From positions 1-32,000 of the forward strand of contig JAWBON010000005.1 in the NCBI GenBank assembly GCA_038826135.1: DNA of 32,000 bases, in the 5' to 3' direction. Shown in pieces: positions 5,399-24,377 of the stretch. Each line of letters begins with the position of its first letter. Position 1 is the first letter of the stretch. The translations under genes and the position numbers were made by a program. This stretch comes from Candidatus Odinarchaeota archaeon (GTDB lineage: Archaea > Asgardarchaeota > Odinarchaeia > Odinarchaeales > Odinarchaeaceae). The notes beneath the pieces are model-generated. The model saw only the letters and a program-made list of their open reading frames with translations, had not been told where the DNA came from and made no database searches.

Positions 5399-5504
5399 TG
5401 GTGCGGGGGATGGGATTTGAACCCATGAAGCTGTCTGCGTCTATTAGACTCTACAGCATAGGATTCTGAGTCCTACCCCTTAGACCTGGCTCGGGAACCC
5501 CCGC
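5399..5504 (-). tRNA. tRNA-Leu(CAG) with an 18-nt intron (5433-5450) in the variable arm; CCA encoded
   Basis: Acceptor GCGGGGG/CCCCCGC, anticodon arm TAGGA-CTCAGAA-TCCTA, T arm ATGGG-TTCAAAT-CCCAT. The variable region is too long. BHB-like fold CTGT-AG^A-GTCT-AAT-AGAC-GCAG-AC^A; removal leaves a normal Leu V-arm T-GCT-GTAG-AGC-TTC and an 88-nt tRNA. Confidence 0.93.
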
Positions 5505-5540
5505 TTTTGTAATAATTCTCAGATACGAGTATTTTAATTT

Positions 5541-6332
5541 TTATAGAGCGCTTTTTATTATCCCGCCGTCGATTTGTATGGTTGCTCCTGTGATATAGCT
5601 TGCTCTTTCAGATGCTAAGAAGACTATTAGTTCAGCGTATTCTCTGGGGTTTCCTAGTCTACCTAGCGGGATCTGCGACTCCCAGTCTTTGAATATGTTT
5701 TCTACAGTTGTGTTTAATTTAGCAGCTTTATTTTTAGCAAGCTGGATAACCCTGTCTGTTTTAAAATAGCCGGGGCATATGTTGTTAACTGTAATATTGT
5801 ATTTTCCAACCTCGTTTGCAAGTGTTTTAGCGAAGCCTATGACCGCCAGTCTTATACTGTTTGAAAGAATTAAGCCCTCTATAGGTTGTTTAACGGAGAA
5901 AGATGTTGAATTTATTATTCTACCCCAACGCTTCTTTATCATGTAAGGTAACACATTTTTAGAAAGCGTTATAGTACTCATAAGATTCAGCTTAACAGCT
6001 TTCATCCATTCCTCCAGTGGGAGCTCTGTGAATAAGCCTGTAGGGGGACCGCCTGCATTATTAATAAGAATGTTTATATCCCCGAGGGCTTCAGCGGTTT
6101 CCTTCACAAATTTTTCGATTTCCGCCTCAACTGTTAAATCGCATTTAAAGGCTAAAACCTCAGCTCCTGTTTCTTTTATTATAGCATCCCGTGATTTTAA
6201 TAATTCGCTATTATTTCTCGCACACATTGAGACTCTAACACCTTCTTCTGCAAAGGCTTTAGCTATCTCAAAGCCGAGACCCCTGCTTGAAGCAGCTACG
6301 ATGGCTACTTTCCCTTTAAGCCCAAGATCCAT
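5541..6332 (-). CDS. Short-chain dehydrogenase/reductase (FabG-like SDR)
   Basis: AASSRGLG Rossmann motif, NNAGG, S...R (SNSIR) variant of the YxxxK site, NNICPG, GRLG.P.E, YITG. Confidence 0.9.
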   Translation of the reverse strand: MDLGLKGKVAIVAASSRGLGFEIAKAFAEEGVRVSMCARNNSELLKSRDAIIKETGAEVLAFKCDLTVEAEIEKFVKETAEALGDINILINNAGGPPTGLFTELPLEEWMKAVKLNLMSTITLSKNVLPYMIKKRWGRIINSTSFSVKQPIEGLILSNSIRLAVIGFAKTLANEVGKYNITVNNICPGYFKTDRVIQLAKNKAAKLNTTVENIFKDWESQIPLGRLGNPREYAELIVFLASERASYITGATIQIDGGIIKSAL

Positions 6333-6347
6333 ATAATCACCCGGCTA

Positions 6348-7187
6348 TTATTTAATTAAATTATATTTACTAATAAATTTTGATACGGTTTTAACCTGTC
6401 GCACATCATGAGTCCGGATTATATTAGCCCCTTTTAAAATTGCTAAAATTGTTGCGGCTGTTGAGCCTGTCAAAACATCTTCATCACTATCTGAGTTAAC
6501 CATGGTTTTTATGAAGACTTTCCTAGACAAACCTACAAGGATTGGTTTCCGGAGTGCTTTTAACCTGTGAATGTTTTTTAAGATTTGAATGTTCAACTCA
6601 ACCGATTTACCGAAGCCGAAGCCGGGGTCGATAATTATCTTTGACTTTTCAGCTTTTGCTTCAAGAGCAATATTTATACTCTCTCGTAAAGCAGGTATTA
6701 ACTGGTTAATGGAAGATATATCCCCCGGCTCACGTCTTGAAGCCATTAAAATAACATACGGCGAGTACTCTTCTATAACACGCTTCATATTTTTGTCTTT
6801 TTTAAGACCACTCACATCATTAATGATCTCAGCGCCTAGCCTTAACGCCTTCTCCGCCACCTTCGCTCTCATAGTATCCACTGATATAGGTAAGCTGGTG
6901 CAATCTCTAATATAGGGTAGAGCCTCCTCCACCCGTTTAAGCTCCTCCTCTTCTGAAACATATTTTGAGCCAGGGTAAAATGATACGGGCGCGGTTGAAG
7001 CGGCCCCTATATCAATAATATCCGCACCGTCTTCAACCAGTTTTAAAGTGTACTCGGTTAAATCCCTAGCCGTTATTTTAATAGATGGTGTGTAAAATGA
7101 CTCGGGGGAGCAGTTTATAACGCCCATTACAAGGGGTTGAGTATTCTCACCGATGATTTTAGATTTGAAGAATTTCTTCACCGTCAT
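6348..7187 (-). CDS. folP: Dihydropteroate synthase
   Basis: MGVIN.SPESFY, GADIIDIGAAST, ISVDT, IINDVSG, IIIDPGFGFGK, LVGLSRK, IIRTHDV. An alternative upstream ATG is at 7196. Confidence 0.9.
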   Translation of the reverse strand: MTVKKFFKSKIIGENTQPLVMGVINCSPESFYTPSIKITARDLTEYTLKLVEDGADIIDIGAASTAPVSFYPGSKYVSEEEELKRVEEALPYIRDCTSLPISVDTMRAKVAEKALRLGAEIINDVSGLKKDKNMKRVIEEYSPYVILMASRREPGDISSINQLIPALRESINIALEAKAEKSKIIIDPGFGFGKSVELNIQILKNIHRLKALRKPILVGLSRKVFIKTMVNSDSDEDVLTGSTAATILAILKGANIIRTHDVRQVKTVSKFISKYNLIK

Positions 7188-7277
7188 ACCTACCATCTAA
7201 TAAATTATTAAAGATTAACTAAAACTTTTTAAAAAACCTATCATAATTATTATCTTAACCAAGGGATAGGTGACATT

Positions 7278-8438
7278 ATGAGCGATAGACTTAAAATTAC
7301 CCATCTTAACTCGTGGCATAAGAAATACGCTAAAATGGTTGAGTTCGCAGGCTACGAGATGCCTTTATGGTATGAGAAGGGGATTGTGGAAGAGCATTTA
7401 ACAGTAAGACGCAGCGTCGGAGTTTTTGACGTAACTCATATGGGTCGTTTTATTTTCAAAGGCGCTGACGCTGAATCTTTACTTGACTATTTGACAACGA
7501 ATAATGTTAAAAATCTTAAAATAGGGGAGGGGCAGTACTCTGTTCTGTGCAATGAGAGTGGGGGTATAATAGACGATCTTATAATTTATCGCTTAGAGGA
7601 AGACTTGTTTTTCGTTGTTGTTAACTCAGCTAATAAAGTTAAAGATGAAGCCTGGTTTAGAAAACATGGGAAAGGCAGAAACGTTGATATACAGAATATA
7701 TCCGATAACACACCGCAGTTCGCTGTTCAAGGACCGAAAGCGGTAGAAACTTTGAGTAAAATCTCTGATGTAAACCTTAACAGACCGTATAAATTCGGTG
7801 ATATAATTGAAACAAAACTAGCAGGTTACAGCGTCTATGCTACGCGCACAGGCTACACAGGCGAAGACGGATATGAGATTGCCCAGCTAAACACGCCGTT
7901 ATCTAATCCTAAACCAGCGGTAGAGTTATGGGAGAGGATACTAGAGGCTGGTAAAGAGTTCGATATAACACCTGTCGGCTTAGGGGCGCGTGATACACTT
8001 CGATTAGAAGCGGGTATGCCACTTCACGGTTCAGATATAACCGAGGAGACTACACCCTTCGAGGCTAGACTTAAATTTGTGGTTAAACTGGATAAAGATG
8101 ATTTCATAGGTAAAACTGCTTTAAAAAAGCAGATGGAGTTGAAGCCTTCAAAACTTAGAGTGGGTTTAATCCTTATAGATAAAGGGATACCGCGCCCACA
8201 TCTTAACATATTTGCAGGCGGTAAAATAATAGGTGAAACAACAAGCGGAGGCTACTCACCTCTTATGCCTAAAGGTTACGGTGTAGCTTTAGGATACGTT
8301 GATAGAAAATATAAGGAAGACGGGACCATTGTCCATATAGAGATTCACGGTAAAAAAAGAGCTGCAGAGGTTGTAAAACCTAGAAAAATGCTGAATAAAA
8401 TAAAAGAGAAGGCTAGGCAGTTAAGCTCTAATCAATAA
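7278..8438 (+). CDS. gcvT: Glycine cleavage system T protein (aminomethyltransferase)
   Basis: FAGYEMPLWY, EHLTVR, FDVTHMG, GGIIDD, RTGYTGEDGYE, GLGARDTLRLEAG. Confidence 0.96.
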   Translation: MSDRLKITHLNSWHKKYAKMVEFAGYEMPLWYEKGIVEEHLTVRRSVGVFDVTHMGRFIFKGADAESLLDYLTTNNVKNLKIGEGQYSVLCNESGGIIDDLIIYRLEEDLFFVVVNSANKVKDEAWFRKHGKGRNVDIQNISDNTPQFAVQGPKAVETLSKISDVNLNRPYKFGDIIETKLAGYSVYATRTGYTGEDGYEIAQLNTPLSNPKPAVELWERILEAGKEFDITPVGLGARDTLRLEAGMPLHGSDITEETTPFEARLKFVVKLDKDDFIGKTALKKQMELKPSKLRVGLILIDKGIPRPHLNIFAGGKIIGETTSGGYSPLMPKGYGVALGYVDRKYKEDGTIVHIEIHGKKRAAEVVKPRKMLNKIKEKARQLSSNQ

Positions 8439-8581
8439 ATCCACAGTTCCAACGAATTTTTAAAGCGAAAGAGACTAAAAATTCTAAAATCTTCAAAAAA
8501 AGACGAGCCTAATGAAAATATTTATTTATAGCAAATTGAATTAATATTTACAGTTTATCTGGCTATTAGGCGGGAGACTCT

Positions 8582-9436
8582 TTGGCGAAGATACCGTTCG
8601 AGGATAACAGCCTAGAGTTTACTATGCTAATCCCATTCTACAGTCGTGTTATAAGAACAGTTTACGCTAATTCTGATTTCAAAGACTATTCGGCGCTGGA
8701 AATTTTTACTAAGATGAAATACGATTTTGAAAAAATAAAGAATAATTATGATGAAGCAGCTCACGTTTGCATTGAAGCCCGTACTAAAGCATTAGACTAT
8801 CTCGTAAGCAAGTATATTGAAAGAAAACCGTATGCTACTATTGTAAACATCGGGGCTGGTTTAGACACACCCTTCTTAAGGCTAGATAACGGTAAAATAT
8901 TATGGTATGATTTAGACCTGCCTGATGCGATCGAGCTTAGGAGAAAATTCGTAAAAGAAACAGATAGAAACAGGTTTATATCTAAGTCGATGTTCGATTA
9001 CAGCTGGTTCGATCAGATCAACTACAATCCTGAGAGAGGGATATTATTCGTAGCGAGCGGTGTGTTAATGTATTTCGATGAAGAAAAAGTGAAGGATTTT
9101 CTTAGAAAAATAGCCGAGCGTTTTCCTGGAGGGGAGATGGTTTTCGACGCTGTGACGTCGAAGATCGCGGCGATAGTGGCGAATAGAAGAATGAAAAAAT
9201 GCGGTAATAGAAAGGCAATGGTCTGTTGGTATGTTAAAAACTCTAAGATATTCAATATATGGGATAGTAGAATTATCTTGATAAAAATAATGAACTACTT
9301 TGATAGAATTCGAAAACGGTTAATCGCATCTACACTAACTAAATTGAAACTATACATATCACAAATTATTAACGCTATGAAATACTATCATCTCAAATTC
9401 TTAGACGGAAAAGAAAATCAGGAGTCATACTTGTAA
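8582..9436 (+). CDS. Class I SAM-dependent methyltransferase, LCM/TcmP-like family
   Basis: TMLIPFYSR, RT...D, IVNIGAGLDT, WYDLDLPD.IELR, SMFDYSW, SGVLMYF, FDAV. TTG start. Confidence 0.85.
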   Translation: MAKIPFEDNSLEFTMLIPFYSRVIRTVYANSDFKDYSALEIFTKMKYDFEKIKNNYDEAAHVCIEARTKALDYLVSKYIERKPYATIVNIGAGLDTPFLRLDNGKILWYDLDLPDAIELRRKFVKETDRNRFISKSMFDYSWFDQINYNPERGILFVASGVLMYFDEEKVKDFLRKIAERFPGGEMVFDAVTSKIAAIVANRRMKKCGNRKAMVCWYVKNSKIFNIWDSRIILIKIMNYFDRIRKRLIASTLTKLKLYISQIINAMKYYHLKFLDGKENQESYL

Positions 9437-9990
9437 AGCGTGACTCCGAACATAGAAAACCAGCTAGTAATCATTAAAGCAACAACGGTTTCAATTAAAG
9501 CCAATCCCGGTAGATTAATAAAAATCCATACCAATAAACTTATTAAAAGCACAATTAACCCGTACACTCCAAGCCTGAAATAATTTTTTTTAACTATGAA
9601 AATTATGCTCATAACTCCACATAGAAGAATTGAGAGAGCGAACGCTAGAAAAGCGAAAAAATAATGTATAAAACCGAAGCTGAGAGTGAACACACCGGCT
9701 AGAATATAAGAAATATTTGTAGCGAAAAATATGGCTCCAATTATTAAATATCTTAAAACATTTTTATTATAATTGATAAAGAAGATTGAGAATAAAACCC
9801 CTAGAAAACCGCCCCCGATCAAACCGGAATTAAATATATAACTAACTTCAGACACACCCAGTTCGCTTAGAAGACCATTATACCAGTTGAAGCTACTATG
9901 TAAAAACGCGGATATGAATATACTACCCCATATAAGTATCGAGCTGAGGGGTAGTAAGAGTGGGAAAAAACCTAAATTATTTTTACCCAT
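9418..9990 (-). CDS. DUF998-like multi-pass membrane protein
   Basis: About 5-6 hydrophobic helices; F.W...LSELG...S.IFNSGLI.GG; GVF......H...A motifs. Confidence 0.75.
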   Translation of the reverse strand: MGKNNLGFFPLLLPLSSILIWGSIFISAFLHSSFNWYNGLLSELGVSEVSYIFNSGLIGGGFLGVLFSIFFINYNKNVLRYLIIGAIFFATNISYILAGVFTLSFGFIHYFFAFLAFALSILLCGVMSIIFIVKKNYFRLGVYGLIVLLISLLVWIFINLPGLALIETVVALMITSWFSMFGVTLYKYDS

Positions 9991-10032
9991 AAAATTCCCT
10001 TAAAACTTATTACACAGCTATACGAATACAGA

Positions 10033-10323
10033 TCAGTCGCTAATAGTCTCCAAGATACTTACCGCGTTCCATATTTTTACACGCAGCCTTTAATAAGGCA
10101 GCTTTGTGCGAGCATGAAGCGGGCAGTTAGGATCTTGAGAGACCTCATCAAGTATGGAGATAGCGTTCGAAGCTCTTACCGCCATCCCATTAACCTTACT
10201 ATCGTTCAAAGCTGCAATAGATTCGCTTGCAGCCCTCCTTATATTTCTAGGCACGGAGGTATCTTCACTAATCATAGTCAGAACCTGTATCGCCTGCTTA
10301 GCTTTCTCCTCAGCAGTGGACAT
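10033..10323 (-). CDS. UPF0147 family protein, two exons (10323-10104 and 10076-10033), 87 aa after splicing
   Basis: Family motifs [14 protein letters not shown] and S.LDE.SQDPN.P.HART. The ORF track stops at TAA (10090), but the family-type tail [14 protein letters not shown] lies in the same frame 27 nt downstream, beyond a BHB hairpin. Confidence 0.9.
10077..10103 (-). other. 27-nt BHB-type intron in protein-coding gene UPF0147
   Basis: Minus strand: GCAC-AA^A-GCTGCCTT-ATTA-AAGGCTGC-GTGT-AA^A. It has a 4-bp central helix (GCAC/GTGT), two 3-nt AAA bulges and an 8-position intron stem (7 pairs, one U.U). Cutting after the 2nd bulge nt joins ACA A|AA ATA TGG = T-K-I-W. Confidence 0.85.
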
Positions 10324-10544
10324 TTATAAAACCTCCAATATTTTTCAAAGTAACGCTTAATATATAATATGTTATATAACAATTTTTAACTAAATAATGT
10401 ATTATTGAATAGTGAATTATACGATTTAAATCTTACCAAAAGATAACAAGCGAATAATTCTGGTAAATAGCGGTTAAAGGTTGAAAACAACATATTTTTA
10501 TCAAAATTAGTTTAATCTACAAATAGATTTTAGGAGAGTTAAAA

Positions 10545-11723
10545 ATGGTTGAAAATCTCAGTGAAAGCGAGATAAATAGTTTAATCCGTAAAATAAAGGA
10601 GAAAACCGCTCAAAGCCCTTTAGGGAAAATTGTAGTTATAGATGAAGTTGACCATCTCCTAATCATACCACCTAAACCGGATATAAAAAAAGTTTATGTG
10701 GAGTTAACTAATAAATGCAATTTAAACTGTCAAATGTGTATTAGAAGATCATGGTTAGAATCCCTAGAGGAAATGGGTTACGAAGATTATTTGAAATTAT
10801 TAGACCAGTTAACCGAGTTGCCTGAGCTGAAAACAATTGTTTTCGGCGGGCTGGGGGAGCCTACAATCCATCCTAAATTCAAAAAAATAGTTGAATCTAC
10901 AAGAAGCAGATTACCTGAAATTGAACTTGTTATGACCACTAACGGAACTATGATCGATAGGTTTCAAGACCTTATAATAGATAATTTCGATTACATGATT
11001 GTTTCAATAGACGCTGTTAGCGAAGATGTTTTTAAAGGTATAAGAGGCCCCCAGGCGGGTAAAGTTATAAATAATTTAAAAAACTTCGCCGAATACCGGA
11101 ATAAAATCAGGAAGTTCACTCCATGGATATGGGTCGAGTTTGTGGCTATGAGGCAGAATATAGAAGAACTCCCTAAACTATTAGCTATAGCTAAAGACCT
11201 GCAAATCAGTAGAATAATGATATCTAATATGCTACCTTACACACCCGATATGACAGCGGAGAGTTTATACCCCCACGCCGACCCTGAGGAAATATATAAG
11301 TGGATTCCAGTAGGCCCTGATCTTAAAAATTACATCCAGATCAATGTAGCGGACACTCGAATTAGAACGGAGAGAAGCTGCGCGTTCATTAAAAATAAAG
11401 CAGCCGTGATCACTGTAAACGGTGATGTAACTTCCTGCTATAATTTCGCTCACACATACCGCTCCTATATAAACGGTCATGAGAAAACCGTATACAAGTA
11501 TAGCTTCGGAAACATCCACAGTGAGAAACTAAAAGACATATGGATGAAAGAGGAGTACGTGAGATTTCGAAATAAAGTTTCAGATTTCAACTTCCCATCA
11601 TGCATAGATTGCCCGACAAGAGAAGGATGCTCATACGCTAATACTAATGAAGTGGATTGCTACGGTAACACCCCCTCCTGCGCGGAATGTTTGTGGAGCC
11701 GGGATATTGTAAGATGCCCTTAA
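10545..11723 (+). CDS. Radical SAM/SPASM protein, tungsten-cofactor oxidoreductase maturase type
   Basis: LIIPPKPD..KVYVELTNKCNLNCQMC, FGGLGEPTIHP, SPASM C.F, G.VTSC, C-terminal C.DCP...GC...DCYGN.PSC.ECLWSR..VRCP typical of the W-oxidoreductase maturase family. Confidence 0.8.
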   Translation: MVENLSESEINSLIRKIKEKTAQSPLGKIVVIDEVDHLLIIPPKPDIKKVYVELTNKCNLNCQMCIRRSWLESLEEMGYEDYLKLLDQLTELPELKTIVFGGLGEPTIHPKFKKIVESTRSRLPEIELVMTTNGTMIDRFQDLIIDNFDYMIVSIDAVSEDVFKGIRGPQAGKVINNLKNFAEYRNKIRKFTPWIWVEFVAMRQNIEELPKLLAIAKDLQISRIMISNMLPYTPDMTAESLYPHADPEEIYKWIPVGPDLKNYIQINVADTRIRTERSCAFIKNKAAVITVNGDVTSCYNFAHTYRSYINGHEKTVYKYSFGNIHSEKLKDIWMKEEYVRFRNKVSDFNFPSCIDCPTREGCSYANTNEVDCYGNTPSCAECLWSRDIVRCP

Positions 11724-11798
11724 ATTCCAGTAATCTACCAATAAAACTTAAATATTACTTTTTAGAAGCTTTCGTTTAGTAAGTTATCACCCTATAAG

Positions 11799-12074
11799 GT
11801 GGCATATATGGAGGACGTGGTTAAAACCGCTCAAGAATGCTATGATAAAGCATGCCTACTGTACGCTGCCAGAAAACTTGACGACGCTGAGAAAATGTTA
11901 AAAGACGCTTTAAAATACTATGAAACAGCTAGAAAAGGAAAAAACCAGTATAAAAAAGAGATCTCCGAAATCCTGAAATTATTAGGAGACATATACCATC
12001 TTAAAGGGGAAGAGGAGAAATCAAGAAACTATTATGAGAGAAGCCACAAAGTATGGGACTGGAATTTTCCGTAA
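11799..12074 (+). CDS. Small TPR-like helical protein
   Basis: A..YAARKLDDAEKMLKDAL and LGDIY...GEEEKS..YYERS TPR consensus. Start may be ATG 11808. Confidence 0.7.
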   Translation: MAYMEDVVKTAQECYDKACLLYAARKLDDAEKMLKDALKYYETARKGKNQYKKEISEILKLLGDIYHLKGEEEKSRNYYERSHKVWDWNFP

Positions 12075-12204
12075 TCTACTATTTACTATTTTAAAAAATC
12101 ACGAAGAGAGTTTACCTAACTATAAAGATTTTAATCAACGAAAATTAGGTGAATTAAATAATAAAAAAAAGGATTCAAGAATCCGAGAGCGAGTACGGTA
12201 TTTT

Positions 12205-12609
12205 TTAGTATTCTATTTTTCGTGGAAGTTTCTTAGCTTGTTCAATCCAGCTTTTAATTTCTTTAAGAGTTGGCGGTCTCCTCACTATTTTTCTAGCCTT
12301 GTTAAGCTCTAGTATCTTATTATGAAGATTCTCAGGATCCCTTTTAGACAATTCTCCAACCGCGTCAACCCCTGCCTCTTCAAGCAGATCGGAGTATTCA
12401 GGCCCGACACCTTTAATCCGGAAAAGATCCGCGTGATTAACCCATTCAAGAATTAAATTGTCAGCAATACCTGTCTTATTAGCAAGCTCTTTTCTACCAT
12501 TTCTTGTAGCCCCTACTTTAAGCAAGGTTTCAACTGTTTTAACACCAGCGTCACTGAGCTTTTTAGCATAGCTTGGCCCGATGCCTTCGATTTCAATTAT
12601 TTTAGTCAT
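12205..12609 (-). CDS. DUF4332 family tandem helix-hairpin-helix protein
   Basis: IEGIGPSYAKKL..AG..T, WVNHADLFRIKGVGPEYSDLLEEAGVD, RRPP......WIEQAK. ATG 12609 follows SD GGAGTGGT. Confidence 0.85.
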   Translation of the reverse strand: MTKIIEIEGIGPSYAKKLSDAGVKTVETLLKVGATRNGRKELANKTGIADNLILEWVNHADLFRIKGVGPEYSDLLEEAGVDAVGELSKRDPENLHNKILELNKARKIVRRPPTLKEIKSWIEQAKKLPRKIEY

Positions 12610-12635
12610 ATAAACCACTCCATTTAAGTTTTATA

Positions 12636-12657
12636 TATATACGTTATAACGTATATA
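12636..12657. promoter_or_regulatory. Perfect 22-bp palindrome (putative operator) upstream of the DUF4332 gene
   Basis: TATATACGTTATAACGTATATA, 27-48 nt upstream of the start codon. Confidence 0.5.
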
Positions 12658-12695
12658 CCTGTATAGTGAATATGCAAGCATCTTTTATATATGTG

Positions 12696-12728
12696 TTTCC
12701 CTAATAACAACGATGCTTTCCCTAATAA
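12696..12728. repeat. Two 12-bp direct repeats TTTCCCTAATAA with 21-bp period
   Basis: Copies at 12696-12707 and 12717-12728. Confidence 0.6.
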
Positions 12729-12779
12729 GCACTTTTTCCACCATTAAATAAAAGAAATAGTAACCGTTGAAATCAACAG

Positions 12780-12792
12780 AAAAAAAGAAAAA
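12780..12792 (-). terminator. Oligo-T terminator downstream of tRNA-Met
   Basis: Minus strand TTTTTCTTTTTTT about 13 nt after the encoded CCA; typical archaeal U-rich terminator. Confidence 0.55.
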
Positions 12793-12804
12793 TGCTTTCA
12801 TGAA

Positions 12805-12986
12805 TGGTGCCGAGGGCGGGATTTTCCTCCCGACGGTGAGCACCTTTCAGGTTTTGAACCCGCGACTTCCGTCAGCTTGAATTTTACTGTTTCCGGATCT
12901 CTTATTCGTCTGACCCCTTTTTAACAGACAGATTATGAGTCTCGCCTCTTTGAACCGGCGCTCTAACCAGGCTGAGCCACCTCGGC
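12805..12986 (-). tRNA. Elongator tRNA-Met(CAT) with four BHB-type introns; CCA encoded
   Basis: Exons 12986-12955, 12940-12934, 12898-12891, 12866-12853 and 12821-12805 join into a 78-nt cloverleaf: GCCGAGG TG GCTC AGCCTGGTTA GAGC G CCGGA CTCATAA TCCGG AAGTC GCGGG TTCAAAT CCCGC CCTCGGC A CCA. Introns are 14, 35, 24 and 31 nt at 30/31, 37/38, 45/46 and 59/60. Confidence 0.9.
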
Positions 12987-13136
12987 GTTCAGTGTTTGAA
13001 TTTTACTTTATTATGTTAATTAACTTTACGCTAAATAATTTTTTGCAGCGTGGGGGGAAATAGGTTTAACCGGTAATAGTTTGAAACAGAGGTTTTATTA
13101 AGGTTTTATAGCTCATATTTATTATTGGTGGTGTAA

Positions 13137-13781
13137 ATGGTTACTGTTAAATGGCTCGGCCACGCGTGTTTTGAGATTAAAGGGGATGTGACTGTGGTAA
13201 CCGACCCGCATGACGGTGTGAGTCTGGGGATTAAGCCGCCTCAATCTAAAGCTGATATCGTGTTAATAACTCACAGCCACTATGATCACGCTGATGGTTT
13301 ACCTCTTGTACGTAGAGATGACACTGTTGTTCTCAGAGAATTCGTGGGTGAGAGGAACGTTAAAGGCGTTAATGTGAGGGGGGTTAAGACCTTCCATGAT
13401 ACAAGTAAGGGTGCTCAACGCGGTTTGAATGTTATATATCTTTTTGAAATGGCTGGGATGAGATTTCTTCATCTAGGGGATTTAGGGCATGTTCTAGGAT
13501 CGGATATCGTGGAGTCTGTTAAACCGGTTGATGTGCTTTTTGTTCCAGTGGGGGGCACTTATACGCTAGATCATTCAGGCGCGACTAAGATCTATAATGA
13601 GATTAAACCGAGAATAACAATACCGATGCATTATAAAATAAGCGGGTTGAATCTTCCTTTAAGCTCAGTTGACACGTTTCTAGCCGGTAAAGCGGAGGCG
13701 AGACGTCTAGGAGTTAACTTCTTGGAGATTAGTAGGGAGAAGCTTCCTAAAACGAGTGAAATAATTGCTTTAACGGTATAA
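13137..13781 (+). CDS. Metallo-beta-lactamase-fold hydrolase (Lactamase_B_3-like)
   Basis: WLGHACF, TDP, ITHSHYDHAD (HxHxDH), HLGDLGH, PVGG, IPMHY. Confidence 0.9.
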   Translation: MVTVKWLGHACFEIKGDVTVVTDPHDGVSLGIKPPQSKADIVLITHSHYDHADGLPLVRRDDTVVLREFVGERNVKGVNVRGVKTFHDTSKGAQRGLNVIYLFEMAGMRFLHLGDLGHVLGSDIVESVKPVDVLFVPVGGTYTLDHSGATKIYNEIKPRITIPMHYKISGLNLPLSSVDTFLAGKAEARRLGVNFLEISREKLPKTSEIIALTV

Positions 13782-16316: not shown

Positions 16317-16320
16317 GGCT

Positions 16321-16971
16321 TTAACTGCATGTTGAATGAGATTTACCTTCTATTTCCCCACCGGGTACTTTCTCCGAGAATATTTGAGCTTGAAACTTAT
16401 AGATTTTAGTCTTAGCATCCAGCCAGCAGTCTGCTAGTAAACCCGCTTTCTGACAGCAGTGGGATAGGAATTCATTAGCATTCCAACCGTATTCAACAGC
16501 AACCTGGGGGAGAAGGAGCCCCGAATACATCCCAGCTTCAACTATTAAACCATCTTTACCTACACTGATGTGATCAGGGTATTCGCGGGGAGTGTTAGCG
16601 GTTATGAGCTCAGGTTTTGTTAGAACACTTATCTCTATAATTATTTTTTCAAGCTCTTCAAGTGTGACAGGCCCAGGCCCGTAAGGTGGATAGAACCGGT
16701 AGTCTTTGGTTGCAGCGCTAATAGCCGCCTTAATAGTTGCTTCAGTTAAAGGCAGATAAGGGTATGGGAACCCTATACACCCTCTCAGCTGCTTCTCTTT
16801 ACCTTCAATATTGTAAAGTGTAACGAAGACCCCCCGTTTCTCGGTTAAAATTTTAGAGGCTGAAGAGGGGGCTTTCATCTCTTTTTTAGTATTAAGATAC
16901 TCCTTTATAGCAGCCCTTGCAATTTTCATCAGGAACCGCCCATCATCTAAAGATAACAGCAATAACATCAC
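16321..16971 (-). CDS. AMMECR1-domain protein
   Basis: RGVFVTL, LRGCIG, IEISVLT, GLLLPQVAVEYGW, L...C.KAGL. Exact start is uncertain within the first few codons. Confidence 0.9.
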   Translation of the reverse strand: MMLLLLSLDDGRFLMKIARAAIKEYLNTKKEMKAPSSASKILTEKRGVFVTLYNIEGKEKQLRGCIGFPYPYLPLTEATIKAAISAATKDYRFYPPYGPGPVTLEELEKIIIEISVLTKPELITANTPREYPDHISVGKDGLIVEAGMYSGLLLPQVAVEYGWNANEFLSHCCQKAGLLADCWLDAKTKIYKFQAQIFSEKVPGGEIEGKSHSTCS

Positions 16972-17051
16972 CGCTAACTGAAATATTTTATAGCTTGGAT
17001 AATTATAGTTAAGATAATATGATTAAATAAAGTATTCGAAAAGGTTTCAGA

Positions 17052-17552
17052 ATGAGAGAAAAACCTTCATTCATATGTGATAGCATGCTTGGACGCTTAA
17101 GCAGATGGCTCAGAGTACTCGGCTATGATACAGTTTTCCAAAGAGACAGCAGCGATTATGATATTCTCAATTTACTTAAAGCGGAAGAGGATAGGATTTT
17201 ACTAACAAGAGACAGACAGCTTTACACACGCGCCAGCTGTCAAGGAGCCGACTGTCTTCTGATACCTTACCAGAATATCATAGAACAGCTCTCGTATATT
17301 GGTAAAAAATTAGGTTTAAACCTTAAAGTTAACCCTGATAATTCTAGATGCTCTATGTGCAATAACCCCCTTGTTAAGGTTTCAAATATAAACAGTATCC
17401 GCGGGCTTATACCGCCTCTTCTAAGGTTAAGCGGAAGAAGATTCTGGTACTGTGTTAAATGCAATAAGGTTTTCTGGAAGGGTAGAATGTGGCCTAATAT
17501 TAGTAAAATAGCTTTAGCTGCTTCGAAGACAATGCGGCGAATGACTCTGTGA
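17052..17552 (+). CDS. Mut7-C RNase domain protein (PIN-like plus Zn ribbon)
   Basis: F.CDSMLGRLSRWLR.LGYDT, ILLTRD, SRC..CN, C..C.KVFWKG. Confidence 0.88.
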   Translation: MREKPSFICDSMLGRLSRWLRVLGYDTVFQRDSSDYDILNLLKAEEDRILLTRDRQLYTRASCQGADCLLIPYQNIIEQLSYIGKKLGLNLKVNPDNSRCSMCNNPLVKVSNINSIRGLIPPLLRLSGRRFWYCVKCNKVFWKGRMWPNISKIALAASKTMRRMTL

Positions 17553-17597
17553 GACAGCTAAATTTATAGTAAAATCTCCCGCGAAAATAAAAAATAA

Positions 17598-17861
17598 TTA
17601 TTCTCCACCACTCATTTGAGATTTAATCTCAGCTCTTTTAAACGCGTCTACAAACTCGCCGTAAGCGTCAACAGGCTCCATAAGCGCGTGGGATGGGATG
17701 ACAAGCTCCATTTTACAGGCTCCGCATTTAACCTCCGCTATTTTCTCAGTCTTGGAAATATCCACTTTAACCGCTTTTTTACCACACGCAGGGCATACAA
17801 ATACGGCGGGTATCTTAGGTTTAGGTCTTACAACAATTTTCTTAGTTTTACGACGACCCAA
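17598..17861 (-). CDS. elf1: Transcription elongation factor Elf1
   Basis: MGRRK, F.CP.CG, C..C, EPVD.Y..F.D. TTG start after GGAGG. Confidence 0.88.
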   Translation of the reverse strand: MGRRKTKKIVVRPKPKIPAVFVCPACGKKAVKVDISKTEKIAEVKCGACKMELVIPSHALMEPVDAYGEFVDAFKRAEIKSQMSGGE

Positions 17862-18141
17862 AAATATTCCTCCAACAGTTTATAACCGGTTTTATACAAG
17901 CTATAAGAGAGTTTTCATCTCCGCAAACTAGCGCATAGTAGTACACATACAGTTATTTGCCAAGTTTTATAGGATGACGCGGCTCAACCTATATTTAATA
18001 AAGGGATATTTAAAGCAAGAAATATAAAGCTAATGTTAAATTTAACCTTACCGTTAAACTCAGTTTCAACAGTGATGTCTTAAATATGAACTCAAACGCT
18101 TACACGATTTTACAAGGTTCAGAATAATTTTATTTGAAAAA

Positions 18142-18369
18142 TTAAAGAAACCAAACCCAGCTTTTTGCAGCTATTGAAAGCTCCCCTTTAATTACCCCTT
18201 TCAAGCGGAGTTGATTAAGATACCTTGCTGGGCTGTCAGGGCATTTTAAACCCATTCTATTAATCTCAGCCTCTATCTGCGTAGTTGTTAGAGGTCGGCC
18301 AGCATTCTTTAATAATTCAATTATCTTCATAATTATAAGATCATCACCACTCTCACCCAAGCGAGACAC
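18142..18369 (-). CDS. Small winged-helix DNA-binding protein
   Basis: KIIELLKNAGRPLTT.QI, L..LR.KG.I, C-terminal W.W wing pattern. Confidence 0.65.
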   Translation of the reverse strand: MSRLGESGDDLIIMKIIELLKNAGRPLTTTQIEAEINRMGLKCPDSPARYLNQLRLKGVIKGELSIAAKSWVWFL

Positions 18370-18415
18370 CTCAAATTTAATATTTTATACCCGAATAAAA
18401 ATATGAGGTTATTTA

Positions 18416-19711
18416 ATGAGCCTAAAGAAAGAATATTTATCAGTGGATGAGGTTAGAGCGGACATACCGTTAACTAAAAAATATATTTATTTTGATAACG
18501 CTGCAACAACACCTGTACCCCTCCCAGTGATTAAAAAAATGGAAGAGTATCTTATAGAATACTGCGTTAATATTGAGCGGGGAGCCTACTCAATAGCTAA
18601 TCGCGTAACTGAGGAATGGGATCGCGCGAGAGAGGATGTTGCAAGAATACTGCTTAACTGCGATGCGAAGTATCTTATATTCACTCGCAATCTCACACAG
18701 GCTACGAACATCGTAGCATACGCCTTAGGGAACCCGCCTATAACAGTTAAAAATAATAGTTTAACGGCTAAGAGACCTCTAATAGATTGGAGGAGCGGTG
18801 ATGAAATAGTGACAACAATTGTTGAACACCACAGCAATATGCTACCCTGGATGCGGTTAGCCTACTATAAGAAGGCGAAGTTTAAAGTCATCAAGAACCT
18901 TCCTAAGACGGGTCTAATAACCTTGGAGGCTGTGCTAGATAATATTTCCAGTAAAACAAAGTTTTTAGCATTTCAACACGCTTCTAATGTTTTCGGCACT
19001 GTTAACGATGTTAAATCAATAATTAAAGCTGTCAAAGACGTTAACCCTGAATGTTTAGTGTACGTAGACGGGTCTCAAGGACCCGGCCATATGCCAGTTG
19101 ACGTGGAGGATATGGGATGTGACTTCTACGGTTTCTCAGGGCATAAAGGCCCTTTAGGCCCAGCTGGAACAGGCGGGTTATATGTTAGGAAGAATATAAT
19201 CGAGGAGATTGAACCGATTGAAGTAGGCGGCGGGGTAATAGCGAATGTAACTGAGGATTACTATGAGCTTAGAAACGACTACCCGTCTAAAAAATTCGAT
19301 GCTGGATCTCCTAATATTTTAGGATTAATAGGCTTAGGGGAGGCGGCTAGATATATTTCTAGAATAGGTTTAAAGAGAATTCACGAAGCTGAGAGAAAGT
19401 TAATATCTTATTTAATAAGCGGGCTGAGTAAAATTAACGGTGTCCAAATATACGGACCTGAGGAGCCTGAACTGAAAACAGGTGTATTAACATTTAACCT
19501 GAAAGGTTGGAGTTCACATGATTTATCACTGGCTTTAGATGAAAAATGGAGAATACTCACAAGAGCCGGACACCACTGCGCGCTGCCAGCTATAAGATGG
19601 CTGGGAATAAATGAATCCTATAGAGGGAATGTTAGAATATCATTCCATTATTATAATACACTGGATGAAATTGATTTAGCTTTAAACGCTCTTAAACAAC
19701 TTTCAACCTGA
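18416..19711 (+). CDS. Cysteine desulfurase, SufS-like (class V PLP aminotransferase)
   Basis: YFDNAATT, EHHSN.LPW, HASNV.G, VDGSQ, FSGHK (PLP lysine), group II RAGHHCA motif, R.SFHYYNT. Confidence 0.9.
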   Translation: MSLKKEYLSVDEVRADIPLTKKYIYFDNAATTPVPLPVIKKMEEYLIEYCVNIERGAYSIANRVTEEWDRAREDVARILLNCDAKYLIFTRNLTQATNIVAYALGNPPITVKNNSLTAKRPLIDWRSGDEIVTTIVEHHSNMLPWMRLAYYKKAKFKVIKNLPKTGLITLEAVLDNISSKTKFLAFQHASNVFGTVNDVKSIIKAVKDVNPECLVYVDGSQGPGHMPVDVEDMGCDFYGFSGHKGPLGPAGTGGLYVRKNIIEEIEPIEVGGGVIANVTEDYYELRNDYPSKKFDAGSPNILGLIGLGEAARYISRIGLKRIHEAERKLISYLISGLSKINGVQIYGPEEPELKTGVLTFNLKGWSSHDLSLALDEKWRILTRAGHHCALPAIRWLGINESYRGNVRISFHYYNTLDEIDLALNALKQLST

Positions 19712-19722
19712 GCTGGTTGAAT

Positions 19723-21789
19723 TTACATTCTACTATTAAAATAGTCGAGAAGTTCTTTACTCTCCTTTTCAGGTTCTACTTGACGAATATAAGTTACATT
19801 CAGCTCATTATCCTGCGAGAAATCGCTGAAAATCACTTTTCCACCGAAAACGTATGTTTTAGCTATGAGTGATTGAATACGAGTGTTAACCTCATCTTCT
19901 TTACCGGATTCGATCATACTGTGAATCTCTTCAGCGGGAATTCCTAAAAGACCTTCAGCGGAGCCTCCAAGAAGGTTCGCTCTAATAGTACCTGTCCCGT
20001 CATCTAATGTGACGCTTAATATTACGCGATAGTTTATTTCATTTATAGCCCCGCAGTTATCACAAAGCCCTCCTGTATCGGTTTTCACCGCTTTTTTAAA
20101 ACACGCAGGGCAAGCGGGGTAAACTATGTTTTTCCCGAAAACATACACTATTGTACCCACAACCTCAACTTTATCCTGGGGTTGTAAATCAGATATTTTC
20201 TTCCTTTGAAAGAGGGGTCTTCCAGTACTAGGCTGAACAATGCTTGTGGCTGTTAATTCAACCCCAGCGGGGTTTACAGTGATTATTGAAGATTCGCTTA
20301 AATGTAATTCAATATTATTGTTAAGCCCTGTTTTCGTATACCCTCCTTTAACAGATATTATATCACCGGTTTTCAAATCAGCTAAAAGCTCAGCAGATTT
20401 ACCCCAGGCCACAACCCTTATACTTCCAGTTTCATCTGCAATGAACATGCTTAAAACCTTACCAGACGAGCCGGTGGATCTTTCAAACTCTTTCAACTCG
20501 TATATTTGAGTTACTTTCCCTACTACAGCTATATTGAAGAGCTCCGTGTTAAGCTCTGATATTTTTCTAGGTTTACTCTCAGAGACAGCTGGTAAAGTTG
20601 TCTCAGGAGGGTTTAGTTCAATAAGTCCCTTAGACCCTACGTTCACACTAACCCCGAAGTCATCCACCCTTGTATAGGCATGGCTTATTTTTACTATATC
20701 ACCGATCTTTAACTCCGAGATTTCATCCACTTTATCATCCCAGAAAGACACTCTAGCTGAGCCTGAATTATCGTTTATCATAATTGATTTAACCCGACCG
20801 GTCGAGCCGTCAGCTCTGTTGAATTCCTTCTCATCGTACACGGCTGTAACCCGCCCTGTTATATCCACGTCAAAGTACCGGCCGGTGATATCCGCTATTT
20901 TAATAGGCTTAGACGGATAAATATCGGAGAAGTCTATTCCAAGATCAGGGTTAACTTCTATTTCAACACCAGCAGATGTGTGTAATTCAACCTCCCCATT
21001 CTTGTTTTCACGTGATGTAAGTTTTTTAACGTAAACAATCTGCCCTTCCTTTAAGCTTTCAAATAATGGAACACTATCACCCCATACCACGATTCTACAG
21101 GTTCCTCTAGTCCCCTGAATGATTAAACTCATAACTCTCCCTTCACTTCCATCAGCTCGTGTAAAAGTGGACTGGGGGAGAATTCGCATTACAACACCTG
21201 CAACATTTAAACTGGTTTTATCAGGTTCTAGGCTTGAGAAATCAGTTATAATTGAAGGTGTAGAATACAAGCGTTCTAGACCGGTATCAGTCGGGTATAG
21301 TATCTCCGATCTGACGCCGATATTAAGTTCAGGTTTACCGTCCCTACCTTCTTTAACATAACCTCTTATAATTTTTATAACTTTACCGTTTCTTACAGCA
21401 CCCTGCTTAATACTTGATGTTTTATCATCCCAGAAAACTATACGGATCTCGCCGGAGTTATCCATAATTCTACCGCTAGCAACCGCTCCCTTACGCCCAC
21501 CTCCCCTATCAAACACTTTTACAGGGGTAAGATCTTTGATAACACCGGTTATCGAAACACTGTTCATTCCAGGTATGAGATCGGAAATCCTTAATTTATG
21601 CTCGGATGGGCTTTGATCCTCGAATATATTTATCCCCAGTTCTTTAGCTATTATATAAGCCGCTCCCTCATCGGTTATTAAACCGCCTAGTTCACTCTTC
21701 TTTAATCTAATCTTATTCAGTATGTCCTCTTTAGACATCTTCACTTTCGCTCTAATCTTGTTTACAACCTCATCAACTGAGAGACTCAA
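19723..21789 (-). CDS. rpa: Replication protein A large subunit (multiple OB folds plus Zn finger)
   Basis: N-terminal GGLIT.EGAAYIIAKELG helical domain; four repeated OB units (F.R.DG..G.V, D.SG.IR...W); Zn motif CPAC...CDNC; LDDGTG.IRA. Confidence 0.9.
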   Translation of the reverse strand: MSLSVDEVVNKIRAKVKMSKEDILNKIRLKKSELGGLITDEGAAYIIAKELGINIFEDQSPSEHKLRISDLIPGMNSVSITGVIKDLTPVKVFDRGGGRKGAVASGRIMDNSGEIRIVFWDDKTSSIKQGAVRNGKVIKIIRGYVKEGRDGKPELNIGVRSEILYPTDTGLERLYSTPSIITDFSSLEPDKTSLNVAGVVMRILPQSTFTRADGSEGRVMSLIIQGTRGTCRIVVWGDSVPLFESLKEGQIVYVKKLTSRENKNGEVELHTSAGVEIEVNPDLGIDFSDIYPSKPIKIADITGRYFDVDITGRVTAVYDEKEFNRADGSTGRVKSIMINDNSGSARVSFWDDKVDEISELKIGDIVKISHAYTRVDDFGVSVNVGSKGLIELNPPETTLPAVSESKPRKISELNTELFNIAVVGKVTQIYELKEFERSTGSSGKVLSMFIADETGSIRVVAWGKSAELLADLKTGDIISVKGGYTKTGLNNNIELHLSESSIITVNPAGVELTATSIVQPSTGRPLFQRKKISDLQPQDKVEVVGTIVYVFGKNIVYPACPACFKKAVKTDTGGLCDNCGAINEINYRVILSVTLDDGTGTIRANLLGGSAEGLLGIPAEEIHSMIESGKEDEVNTRIQSLIAKTYVFGGKVIFSDFSQDNELNVTYIRQVEPEKESKELLDYFNSRM

Positions 21790-21858
21790 TTATCCAACCT
21801 CAAACCCATATAGTAGTGTATATTCGAATATTAAAAGACTTAAGGCTGCTACCCGTAA

Positions 21859-22287
21859 TCATATGTCAACTACGAATCTTAATATAACCTCTTTCTCAGA
21901 CTGTTTGACCTCCATCTGAGCATATGTGGGGGCTTTAATCTCTGTTTTAAGCCTGTGTTTAGTAAAATCTATTTTTTCACCTTTTATAGACGCGGATAAA
22001 CTATATTTATCTTTACCATCTTTGATTTTAACTTTAAATTCTCGGAAAAGACATTCTTCAGTGTCAACTAAAAATAGCAGTTCCCGTATATACTCAAATA
22101 AGAGAGCGTATAGATCCTCAGCCTCTATTTTAAAACGCCTAGTTAATTTAATGTCAACGTTTGAAACATCAGCCATTACATTGAACAATGCTAGACCAGC
22201 CTGTTCGAAAGCCTCATTCAAAGATGGAGCGTAAACCTCTAAATAAACATCTGCGGTATGAGGGAGTTCCCGGTAGCCTTTACTCAA
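21859..22287 (-). CDS. Archease (RtcB RNA-ligase activator)
   Basis: Y..L.HTADV, AF..A..A.F..M, EIKA.TY, C-terminal V.DI. Confidence 0.9.
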   Translation of the reverse strand: MSKGYRELPHTADVYLEVYAPSLNEAFEQAGLALFNVMADVSNVDIKLTRRFKIEAEDLYALLFEYIRELLFLVDTEECLFREFKVKIKDGKDKYSLSASIKGEKIDFTKHRLKTEIKAPTYAQMEVKQSEKEVILRFVVDI

Positions 22288-22297
22288 GAACCTACAC

Positions 22298-22621
22298 CTA
22301 TTCTACTTCACTACCAATTTCAATATCGGAAGCGGTTGTTAAAATAGAAACTTTATCCTTATTAACAGCTGCTAGAAGCATGCCATTGCTCTCAACACCG
22401 AAGATTTTAGCAGGCTTCATATTGGTTACAACAATGATGTTTTTACCAATCAACTCCTCAGGCCTATATATGTTAGCTAAACCAGCTACAAGTGTTCTAG
22501 GGGAAGATTCTCCAACATCCACGGAGAGCTTTAACAGTTTATTCGAGCCTTTTATATTCTCAGCTGTTAAAACCTTCCCGACTTTTAATTTAATTTTCTG
22601 AAAATCTGAGTATGAGATAAT
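22298..22621 (-). CDS. Stand-alone tRNA-binding OB-fold protein (Trbp111/CsaA/MetRS C-terminal-like), probable ATT start
   Basis: The frame is open upstream of the ORF-track start: ISYSDFQKIKLKVGKV..AE.IKGSNKLLKL.VDVG...RTLVAGL..Y..EEL.GK....N.KP.K.FG.ES.GM.LAA. There is no ATG/GTG/TTG before an in-frame TAA; ATT lies 7 nt after GGAGGT. Confidence 0.85.
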   Translation of the reverse strand: MISYSDFQKIKLKVGKVLTAENIKGSNKLLKLSVDVGESSPRTLVAGLANIYRPEELIGKNIIVVTNMKPAKIFGVESNGMLLAAVNKDKVSILTTASDIEIGSEVE

Positions 22622-22797
22622 TTCAGATACCTCCTTTTAACTGGTTGGTTAATAATCTAAGATAATAATTATATTATAACTATGTCGGATTTAAACGTTT
22701 TAACCGTTAAATTTTAAATGGCTTAAAAACGTTTAGAAAAATATTTTATACCTCTAAAATACTTATATAAGGAAGAGGATGGAATAGAGGGATTTAA

Positions 22798-24015
22798 TTG
22801 AAATTCAAGTTTCTAACTCTTAAAGATGTGGCTTTAACCAATAAAAGAGTTTTAGTAAGGGTTGATATCAACTCACCTATCGCTGATAACAATACTCTGC
22901 TTGAAACTAGTAGAATAAAAGCAATATTGCCGACACTGGAAATGTTGAAGGATTCGAAAACAGTTTTACTAGCCCATCAAAGTCGACCGGGTAAAAAAGA
23001 TTTCACAAGTTTAGCTCCTCATGCTGCTGTTCTTAAAAGCATGATAGATAGACCTGTAAAATTTGTCGATGACATATTCGGAAGCACCGCTCAGAAAGCT
23101 ATTAAAGAATTAAAGAACGGCGAGATTCTATTATTAGAAAACGTTCGTTTTTACTCAGAGGAGGTTGCGGAGGATATACCGCCTGAAAAACAGGCGAAAA
23201 CTATAATGGTTAGGGTATTAAGCCCGCTTTTCGACTTATTCGTTAACGACGCTTTCGCTGCAGCGCATAGAGCTCAACCTTCACTAATAGGTTTCACATA
23301 TACTTTACCTTCAGTCGCTGGGAAGGTAATGGAGAAAGAGCTGACCGTGTTAAATAAGATATTCGACCCTGATAGACCTGCAGTTTTCATTATAGGCGGC
23401 GCTAAGATTGATACTAAACTTGAGATTCTTAAAAACATTCTGAAAAATGGAAAAGCAGATAAAATACTTTTAGGCGGACTTTTAATAAACCTCTTCCTAG
23501 AAGCTAAAGGCTACAAGATCGGAGAATTAAATAGGAAAACTATTGACAAATTTGACCATTATCTGAAGGAGACTGAAAACATACTCAGAGAATACGAGGA
23601 TAATATAGAGTTACCTACCGATGTGGCTATAGAGGAGGGGGGTAAAAGATACGAAGTCTCCTGCGATGAGCTGAATAGAGAGAATAAAATTCTAGATATA
23701 GGTTTAGATACAATCGTGAAATATTCGAATATAATAGTGAACAGTAAAACAGTTGTAGCTAATGGTCCTCTGGGACTTTTTGAAAGAGAGGATTTTGCAC
23801 TAGGTACTCGGGAGATATTAGACGCGATGACCCGCTGCAAAAATTTCACAGTTGTAGGCGGGGGTGAACTGGGAGGGTATGCTGAAATATTAGGGCTCAG
23901 CGGTAAAATAAGCCATTTAAGCACAGGGGGCGGCGCGACATTAGCTTTACTGTCAGGTGAAGAGTTGCCTGTTATAAAAGCTCTTGAAGAGGCTGCGCGG
24001 AAATTCAAGCACTAG
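22798..24015 (+). CDS. pgk: Phosphoglycerate kinase (archaeal type)
   Basis: RVLVRVDINSP, AHQSRPG, LLENVRF, NDAFAAAHR, GGAK, NGPLG.FE, GGG, STGGGA. Confidence 0.96.
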   Translation: MKFKFLTLKDVALTNKRVLVRVDINSPIADNNTLLETSRIKAILPTLEMLKDSKTVLLAHQSRPGKKDFTSLAPHAAVLKSMIDRPVKFVDDIFGSTAQKAIKELKNGEILLLENVRFYSEEVAEDIPPEKQAKTIMVRVLSPLFDLFVNDAFAAAHRAQPSLIGFTYTLPSVAGKVMEKELTVLNKIFDPDRPAVFIIGGAKIDTKLEILKNILKNGKADKILLGGLLINLFLEAKGYKIGELNRKTIDKFDHYLKETENILREYEDNIELPTDVAIEEGGKRYEVSCDELNRENKILDIGLDTIVKYSNIIVNSKTVVANGPLGLFEREDFALGTREILDAMTRCKNFTVVGGGELGGYAEILGLSGKISHLSTGGGATLALLSGEELPVIKALEEAARKFKH

Positions 24016-24109
24016 GCTGCGTAGAAAGGATAAAACTGGTATTAAGTTTTTATATTTGAATTTTGCAAATTATCAAAGTGAATAGAACACATGCTCCAGT
24101 AAACTTAAC

Positions 24110-24236
24110 GGCTCGGTGGCTCAGCCCGGCTAGAGCAACGGACTTGTAAGTTACTTGAAAACCGGGAGATCCGTCGGAAATAGTTGTCACCAGACCTATT
24201 GGCGAATCGGGGGTTCAAATCCCCCCCGAGCCTCCA
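24110..24236 (+). tRNA. tRNA-Thr(TGT) with two introns (24149-24168 at 37/38; 24178-24206 at 46/47); CCA encoded
   Basis: Spliced 78-nt cloverleaf GGCTCGG...ACGGA CTTGTAA TCCGT CGGTC GGGGG TTCAAAT CCCCC CCGAGCC T CCA. BHB1: CTTG-TA^A-GTT..AAC-CGGG-AG^A. BHB2: CGTC-GG^A-AATAG..CTATT-GGCG-AA^T. Confidence 0.9.
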
Positions 24237-24246
24237 TAATAAAAAT

Positions 24247-24377
24247 GGGGCGGTAGTCTAGCTTGGTATGATTCTGGATTTGGGATCCAGAGTTCTATAG
24301 GAGAGCCCTATAAACTGGAGATCACCGGTTCAAAAGATTAGCTGCCAGCTAATCTGAAATTCCGGTCCGCCCCACCA
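24247..24377 (+). tRNA. tRNA-Pro(TGG) with two introns (24293-24320 at 45/46; 24335-24360 at 59/60); CCA encoded
   Basis: Spliced 77-nt cloverleaf GGGGCGG...CTGGA TTTGGGA TCCAG AGATC ACCGG TTCAAAT CCGGT CCGCCCC A CCA. BHB1: CCAG-AG^T...CTGG-AG^A. BHB2 is strict: TTCA-AA^A-GATTAGCT-GCC-AGCTAATC-TGAA-AT^T. It lies 10 nt downstream of tRNA-Thr, so a dicistronic transcript is likely. Confidence 0.93.

Follow-up and report, generated by a model that had tools for sequence, protein, structure and literature searches.

What are the short inserts that interrupt the genes in a stretch of Asgard archaeal DNA? The 32-kb window analysed, which is the whole stretch on contig C5, contains four tRNA genes, Leu-CAG, Met-CAT, Thr-TGT and Pro-TGG. 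They carry one, four, two and two inserts, respectively, with the fold of bulge-helix-bulge (BHB) introns, and a tenth insert disrupts the coding sequence (CDS) of a UPF0147 gene. Are these inserts spliced? Do others occur in protein genes elsewhere in the genome? Are the enzymes present, and do they account for the number of introns? Positions given without a contig refer to the window; other coordinates refer to contigs of the same source assembly (G000, 1.26 Mb, 93% complete) unless another genome is named. Among named records, the nearest are metagenome-assembled genomes of Candidatus Odinarchaeota/Odinarchaeia, in agreement with the Asgard host proposed in the initial annotation of this DNA.

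The inserts are very probably archaeal BHB introns, which EndA and RtcB would splice from tRNAs and from at least six mRNAs (UPF0147, gatA, kae1, gcvPA, citG and a PF04008 gene). We infer cleavage and ligation in the cell from the motifs, the restored gene products, their comparative behaviour and the enzyme genes, all of which were observed in the sequence.

The tRNA genes and their introns

Reading of the sequence gave nine inserts in the four tRNA genes, each fitting the order four nucleotides, a 3-nt bulge, a hairpin, the 4-nt complement and a second 3-nt bulge, and the in silico cut was placed two bases into each bulge. In the raw, unspliced window ARAGORN calls no tRNA, and Rfam gives three tRNA matches, of which one is weak and two are above threshold. 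With the nine inserts taken out, ARAGORN calls Leu(CAG), Met(CAT), Thr(TGT) and Pro(TGG), of 73-85 nt plus an encoded CCA, the latter being present in all four genes (Table 1). The intron option of ARAGORN was rejected as a validator, since it absorbs the inserts into false long introns and assigns wrong identities (Leu as Tyr, Met as Arg).

All ten introns lie where the initial annotation had put them, and two of the nine in tRNAs are canonical. The tRNA sites are 37/38 (twice), 30/31, 45/46 (twice), 46/47, 59/60 (twice) and the loop of the Leu variable arm. Three of the motifs are full hBHBh' structures, with an outer, exon-side helix (h), the central helix (H) and the intron hairpin (h'); three have a perfect central helix and lack the exon-side helix; in the other three (Met 37/38, 45/46 and 59/60) one position of the central helix is mismatched. 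Two earlier counts need adjustment. Five tRNA introns were said to lack the exon-side helix, which is true of four (Leu, Met 45/46, Thr 46/47 and Pro 45/46), the fifth, Met 37/38, having 2 bp. The two central-helix mismatches described for non-canonical introns, both in tRNA-Met, are there, but a third, in the canonical Met intron, had been missed.

Comparison with relatives supports the assigned boundaries. When four genomes of the genus are compared, none of the 149 exon columns of the Thr-Pro pair varies as opposed to 44 of 103 intron columns, and the switch in variability coincides exactly with the exon/intron boundaries. The differences in tRNA-Met are intronic apart from one exon column, which is changed in one genome. 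The central helix of Thr 37/38 is CGGG, CAAG or CGAG facing CUUG, with pairing kept in every case, the hairpin of Met intron 2 shows a compensatory G:C to A:U change within the genus, and relatives have other paired sequences in place of the Pro intron 1 hairpin. At Met intron 3 (45/46) the loop is variable and the flanking exons are constant in the genus. Exons are conserved and introns are free to vary save for their helices, as expected of BHB introns. A genome of the sister family, G005, has four introns in its tRNA-Met (its contig C88, approximately 5637-5696), three at the same sites and the T-arm intron at 61/62 instead of 59/60, which suggests sliding or independent gain.

This variation also bears on the weakest tRNA inserts, Met 45/46 and Met 59/60, which might be bounded otherwise or processed by a non-BHB route. 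Their central helices pair at three of four positions, their hairpins have little stability and an automatic solver favoured other parses for tRNA-Met. However, the Met(CAT) cloverleaf is obtained from the manual boundaries only, and variation of tRNA-Met in the genus begins and ends at those boundaries, so that other boundaries or another processing route for these two inserts is quite improbable.

Genome-wide, 33 tRNA loci were considered, made up of 31 Rfam matches (29 above threshold), tRNA-Met and the corrected tRNA-Pro. Inserts occur in about 27 and six are uninterrupted; the claim that every tRNA gene is hit therefore holds for the window but not for the genome. At least 39 tRNA introns are present, on the basis of 22 of the 27 loci solved by a structure-guided solver with the remaining five counted as one each, and the variable region holds an intron in about half of the interrupted genes. 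These counts are approximate because the cloverleaf solver failed on five loci and mis-parsed tRNA-Met.

The UPF0147 intron

Exon 1 of the UPF0147 gene matches PF03685 positions 2-69 of 81 and the match stops at the junction with a 27-nt insert that carries an in-frame TAA. The spliced product reads HARTK followed, across the junction, by 13 further residues, and 75 of 80 archaeal loci are contiguous at this point without an insert. The cut sites can slide inside A runs, leaving the product unchanged. An intron at this site was found only in the genus, where the hairpin is kept in four genomes with one pair appearing as C:G, U:G or U:A. The sister family (G004-G006) and a more distant Asgard genome, G012, have a different 31-nt BHB intron in UPF0147, eight codons upstream, between the DPN and CP codons.

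How much weight can the motif itself bear? A loose BHB motif occurs within 3 nt of 24% of random positions. Because such motifs are common, the motif alone is no evidence, and the support comes from restored products and the comparison with relatives. Genome-wide scans for BHB motifs whose removal fuses open reading frames (ORFs) carry no signal, with counts the same as those for decoy motifs with bulges of 0, 1, 4, 5 or 6 nt. Counts restricted to strict hairpins were likewise the same as for decoys and were rejected as a genome-wide signal. Among in-frame insertions without stops, strong BHB motifs are present in 16 of 741, which is the chance rate.

Other interrupted protein genes

A census independent of the motif was made by comparing the ORFs of a relative, G011 (2.14 Mb, whole), with this genome by tblastn, covering approximately 753 kb. 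Clean interruptions were obtained in UPF0147, gatA, kae1 and the PF04008 gene (adenosine-specific kinase family). Events on C10, C6, C2, C41 and C72 were rejected as gene ends, gene starts or wrong-frame alignments. In total five CDS introns were verified beyond UPF0147, in gatA, kae1, gcvPA, citG and the PF04008 gene, and the prediction of more interrupted protein genes in the genome is borne out. No other broken gene was found in the window; ORF 12034-12312, a candidate, is a shadow of a DUF4332 gene.

The five further introns have 4/4 central helices and 3-nt bulges throughout. A full outer helix is seen in kae1 only, the other five of the six CDS introns having relaxed motifs (0-1 bp). The PF04008 intron is common to the sister family, with a quite different sequence; it does not occur in five more distant orthologues inspected (G040, G011, G032, G012), and open-frame lengths suggest likewise elsewhere. 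Taking the ten introns of the window and these five together, the BHB fold fits 15 of 15, with the central helix 4/4 in 12 and 3/4 in three, all of tRNA-Met. The canonical hBHBh' form, with an outer helix of at least 2 bp, does not describe the set as a whole; the perfect-H introns that have it are Met 30/31, Thr 37/38, Pro 59/60 and kae1. Removal of the inserts leaves ARAGORN-valid tRNAs, abutting Pfam coordinates and proteins contiguous with their orthologues.

Could the inserts in protein genes simply stay in, the genes being decaying pseudogenes or encoding truncated or variant proteins, with the BHB shape coincidental? Public annotations do list truncated UPF0147 products of 74-77 amino acids in Odinarchaeia, and the frequency of loose motifs by chance has been noted. 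However, kae1 and gatA belong to the core gene set, and the exons on either side evolve as coding sequence. In up to four genomes, compensatory changes maintain the hairpins of the inserts, and the insert lengths shift by 1-6 nt, including non-multiples of three, regardless of frame. In addition, a hairpin of 5-8 bp (h' of at least 5 bp) together with a 4/4 central helix is found at five of the six CDS sites against 1.8% of random positions. We regard retention of the inserts as very improbable indeed.

Some observations nevertheless weigh against BHB splicing. The exon half of the central helix in the variable-loop motifs is drawn from nucleotides 40-44. Formation of such a motif is therefore in competition with the anticodon stem and with any canonical motif in that precursor, and it cannot coexist with either the cloverleaf or the canonical motif. 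For tRNAs with variable-loop introns we infer ordered splicing or a switch in the fold of the precursor. Cleavage of three Met introns is least certain, because each has a central-helix mismatch and one also lacks the outer helix. Wherever the junction bases repeat, the place of the cut is uncertain by 1-3 nt. Finally, the spliced form of UPF0147 was sought in public gene calls and close relatives gave only the truncated ones.

The CDS introns lie inside very conserved, often Gly-rich motifs (GSDTGG/S, SQGPG/L, TP/YQ, WP/KPG and GQGN/F, the slash marking the intron). A possible reason is that the exon strand of the central helix is not free to change, and this raises the question of whether invariant codons are preferred sites of intron persistence, half of that helix being exon.

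A few further irregularities were noted. On C71, about 40 nt from one contig end and on the minus strand, an in-frame stop stands opposite Cys/Ser/Ala in the AAA ATPase motif QAAP-x-IIF, and may be a contig-end sequencing error or a recoded codon. At C57:5566-5956 (+) and on C91 (minus-strand index 3577-3805), in-frame insertions make the genes longer than their G011 orthologues by approximately 390 and 228 nt, respectively; inteins or additional domains are possible explanations. A gene of about 400 codons has an apparent frameshift, with no insert, at C62:2934-2939 (+).

The splicing machinery

On the model of established archaeal biochemistry, the transcript would fold into a 4-bp helix to which exon and intron each contribute half, with a 3-nt bulge at either end and the intron hairpin at one side. 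An (αβ)2 EndA, bearing a broad-specificity loop on the α subunit, would cut in both bulges and RtcB would join the exons with the help of archease. Without splicing the interrupted mRNAs would give truncated or frame-shifted proteins. Since the exon-side helix is missing from the variable-loop tRNA introns and from most mRNA introns, an enzyme of relaxed specificity would be needed.

Candidates for each component are encoded. The gene for EndA α is split by an assembly break between C48:1-135 (-) and C72:1-127 (+), the ends of which share about 127 nt, identical but for a single mismatch. The best match of the protein is the Aeropyrum pernix α subunit (3P1Z_B), ungapped over the Crenarchaea-specific (L1) loop and with the catalytic His kept. 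Lys occupies both positions corresponding to A. pernix Lys44 and Arg46, residues whose roles in the loop are described in PMC3241643, EKPR being matched by RKPK. A paralogue, EndA β (C45:5803-6357), has Ala at the catalytic His position and keeps the Tyr and Lys. As judged from these sequences, EndA is of the (αβ)2 type with an L1 loop, the broad-specificity enzyme that had been anticipated. RtcB and archease had also been expected and both genes are present, that of archease within the window. RtcB is a 995-aa open frame at C16:2586-5357 (+), in which Pfam positions 1-50 and 49-426 are separated by approximately 1.4 kb; the in-frame insert is probably an intein.

Does a permissive EndA set the intron load? 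The initial annotation held it to be the cause, and an unusually permissive enzyme peculiar to this lineage would agree with the (αβ)2 type, its specificity loop and the predominance of relaxed motifs among the non-canonical and mRNA introns. However, PMC5829648 reports an (αβ)2 EndA with the L1 loop from the TACK and Asgard genomes that it covers, many of them intron-poor. According to a 2026 preprint (10.64898/2026.10.13.758758), EndA features do not account for where introns accumulate, and its census finds no link between these features and load within families. Sister lineages have introns at different sites, which points to repeated gain. An EndA-driven load is therefore unlikely. On these reports we consider the enzyme a permissive background and not the driver; it is probably necessary for the intron load, at best a precondition, and not its explanation.

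A second Asgard lineage

The reverse census, directed at the Jordarchaeia-like genome G011 (a congener of which has one locus resembling Ca. Jordarchaeum records at approximately 82% DNA identity), gave at least seven BHB-supported CDS introns. One is a 29-nt BHB intron in cbf5 (C1:835887-835915 of G011, +) that interrupts the codon for the catalytic Asp between its first and second bases, which is the position described for the crenarchaeal cbf5 intron. The cbf5 gene of the odinarchaeon itself was checked and is uninterrupted. Another of the seven is in a Rab-like small GTPase, between TI and GID. Several additional genes of G011 are split without a strict motif.

On balance we favour the view that, in Asgard lineages rich in introns, tRNA-type splicing acts on mRNAs as a general system of small scale. 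Some 0.5-1% of protein genes would depend on EndA and RtcB in at least two classes, Odinarchaeia and that of the Jordarchaeia-like genome with its seven or more cases. Among them would be core translation genes and cbf5, cut at the crenarchaeal codon phase. If so, expression of these genes would be coupled to tRNA-splicing capacity. Six interrupted genes in a 1.26-Mb Asgard genome, together with the second lineage, would then represent repeated use of this splicing in the closest prokaryotic relatives of eukaryotes. Public records give truncated or split products, and metabolic reconstructions may therefore wrongly score interrupted genes as broken.

Table 1. Coordinates of interrupted genes, introns and the archease gene (window positions, or contig and position; H, central helix; h', intron hairpin).
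Feature	Position	Strand	Intron length	Remarks
tRNA-Leu(CAG) gene	5399-5504	-		CCA 5399-5401; Rfam tRNA 51 bits; ARAGORN Leu(cag) once spliced
Leu intron, variable-arm loop	5433-5450	-	18 nt	H CTGT/GCAG 4/4; bulges AGA/ACA; h' 4-5 bp; no exon-side helix
UPF0147 gene	10033-10323	-		PF03685; exon 1 10104-10323, exon 2 10036-10076, stop 10033-10035
UPF0147 CDS intron	10077-10103	-	27 nt	H GCAC/GTGT 4/4; bulges AAA/AAA
Elongator tRNA-Met(CAT) gene	12805-12986	-		CCA 12805-12807; four introns; unspliced, no Rfam or ARAGORN match; spliced, Met(cat)
Met intron 1, 30/31	12941-12954	-	14 nt	H CGCC/GGCG 4/4; outer helix 3 bp; site common to G005
Met intron 2, canonical 37/38	12899-12933	-	35 nt	H 3/4 (C.A mismatch); exon-side helix 2 bp
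Met intron 3, 45/46	12867-12890	-	24 nt	H 3/4; no outer helix; weakest motif
Met intron 4, T-loop 59/60	12822-12852	-	31 nt	H 3/4; T-stem is 5-bp outer helix
Archease gene (RtcB ligase cofactor)	21859-22287	-		PF01951 positions 1-136 of 136, 148.9 bits
tRNA-Thr(TGT) gene	24110-24236	+		CCA 24234-24236; Rfam 46.7 bits; Thr(tgt) once spliced
Thr intron 1, canonical 37/38	24149-24168	+	20 nt	Full hBHBh'; H CTTG/CGGG
Thr intron 2, variable loop 46/47	24178-24206	+	29 nt	H CGTC/GGCG 4/4, taking nucleotides 41-44; no outer helix
tRNA-Pro(TGG) gene	24247-24377	+		CCA 24375-24377; Rfam just 20.7 bits unspliced; Pro(tgg) once spliced
Pro intron 1, variable loop 45/46	24293-24320	+	28 nt	H CCAG/CTGG 4/4; no outer helix
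Pro intron 2, T-loop 59/60	24335-24360	+	26 nt	Full hBHBh'; H TTCA/TGAA 4/4; h' 8-9 bp; T-stem is outer helix
gatA intron	C35:9457-9485		29 nt	Pfam Amidase 153/156 across gap
kae1 intron	C27:11638-11663		26 nt	Pfam TsaD 61/64 across gap
gcvPA intron	C60:2456-2485		30 nt	Pfam GDC-P 99/101 across gap
citG intron	C79:1196-1220		25 nt	Exon 2 begins at CitG position 18
PF04008 gene intron	C3:14102-14128		27 nt	Exon 2 begins at Pfam position 19
Six further CDS BHB introns of G011	C2:318659-318687, C1:996247-996276, C2:123973-123999, C1:549831-549889, C1:836938-836966, C1:804315-804345		27-59 nt	

Comparison with known systems

Heavy interruption of tRNA genes in Asgard archaea is already known. It has been published for Atabeyarchaeia, Freyarchaeia and Jordiarchaeia in a 2024 paper and in the 2026 preprint (10.64898/2026.10.13.758758). 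As in that work, most tRNA genes of the present genome are interrupted, many of them multiply and at non-canonical sites, with mostly BHB motifs. The load is lower here, about 1.2 introns per detected gene compared with the 2.0-2.4 given for the focal families of that work. The words 'Odinarchaeia' and 'mRNA' are both absent from the text of the preprint, and where the 2024 paper deals with introns it is concerned solely with tRNA genes. In the literature searched, the archaeal mRNA BHB introns reported are those of cbf5 (CDS) and HVO_1309 (leader); relative to that literature the odinarchaeal mRNA introns are new.

The closest parallel is the cbf5 pre-mRNA intron of Crenarchaeota, a BHB intron of 16-44 bp in the CDS (Watanabe 2002; Yokobori 2009, PMC2738675). 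In both systems a short BHB intron lies inside a CDS and its removal is needed for the protein, and the host has an (αβ)2 EndA and many non-canonical tRNA introns. The cases differ in that six other gene families and an Asgard host are involved here, and in that the crenarchaeal intron has proof of the reverse-transcription PCR type whereas the present introns are described from sequence. HVO_1309 of Haloferax volcanii (PMC7714728) is also an mRNA processed by the tRNA-splicing endonuclease, but its BHB intron is in the 5'-untranslated leader and not the CDS.

The endonuclease resembles that of A. pernix (PMC3241643; PDB codes 3P1Z and 3AJV) in the ungapped alignment of α over the loop, both basic residues and a second, non-catalytic paralogue. 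It differs in that β is full length and closer to Methanocaldococcus jannaschii EndA than to crenarchaeal β, and its assembly as a heterotetramer is predicted. A link to the origin of TSEN or of IRE1/RtcB splicing is speculation. With IRE1/HAC1-XBP1 splicing only the ligation by RtcB would be common, the motif here being BHB and not assigned to the IRE1 family.

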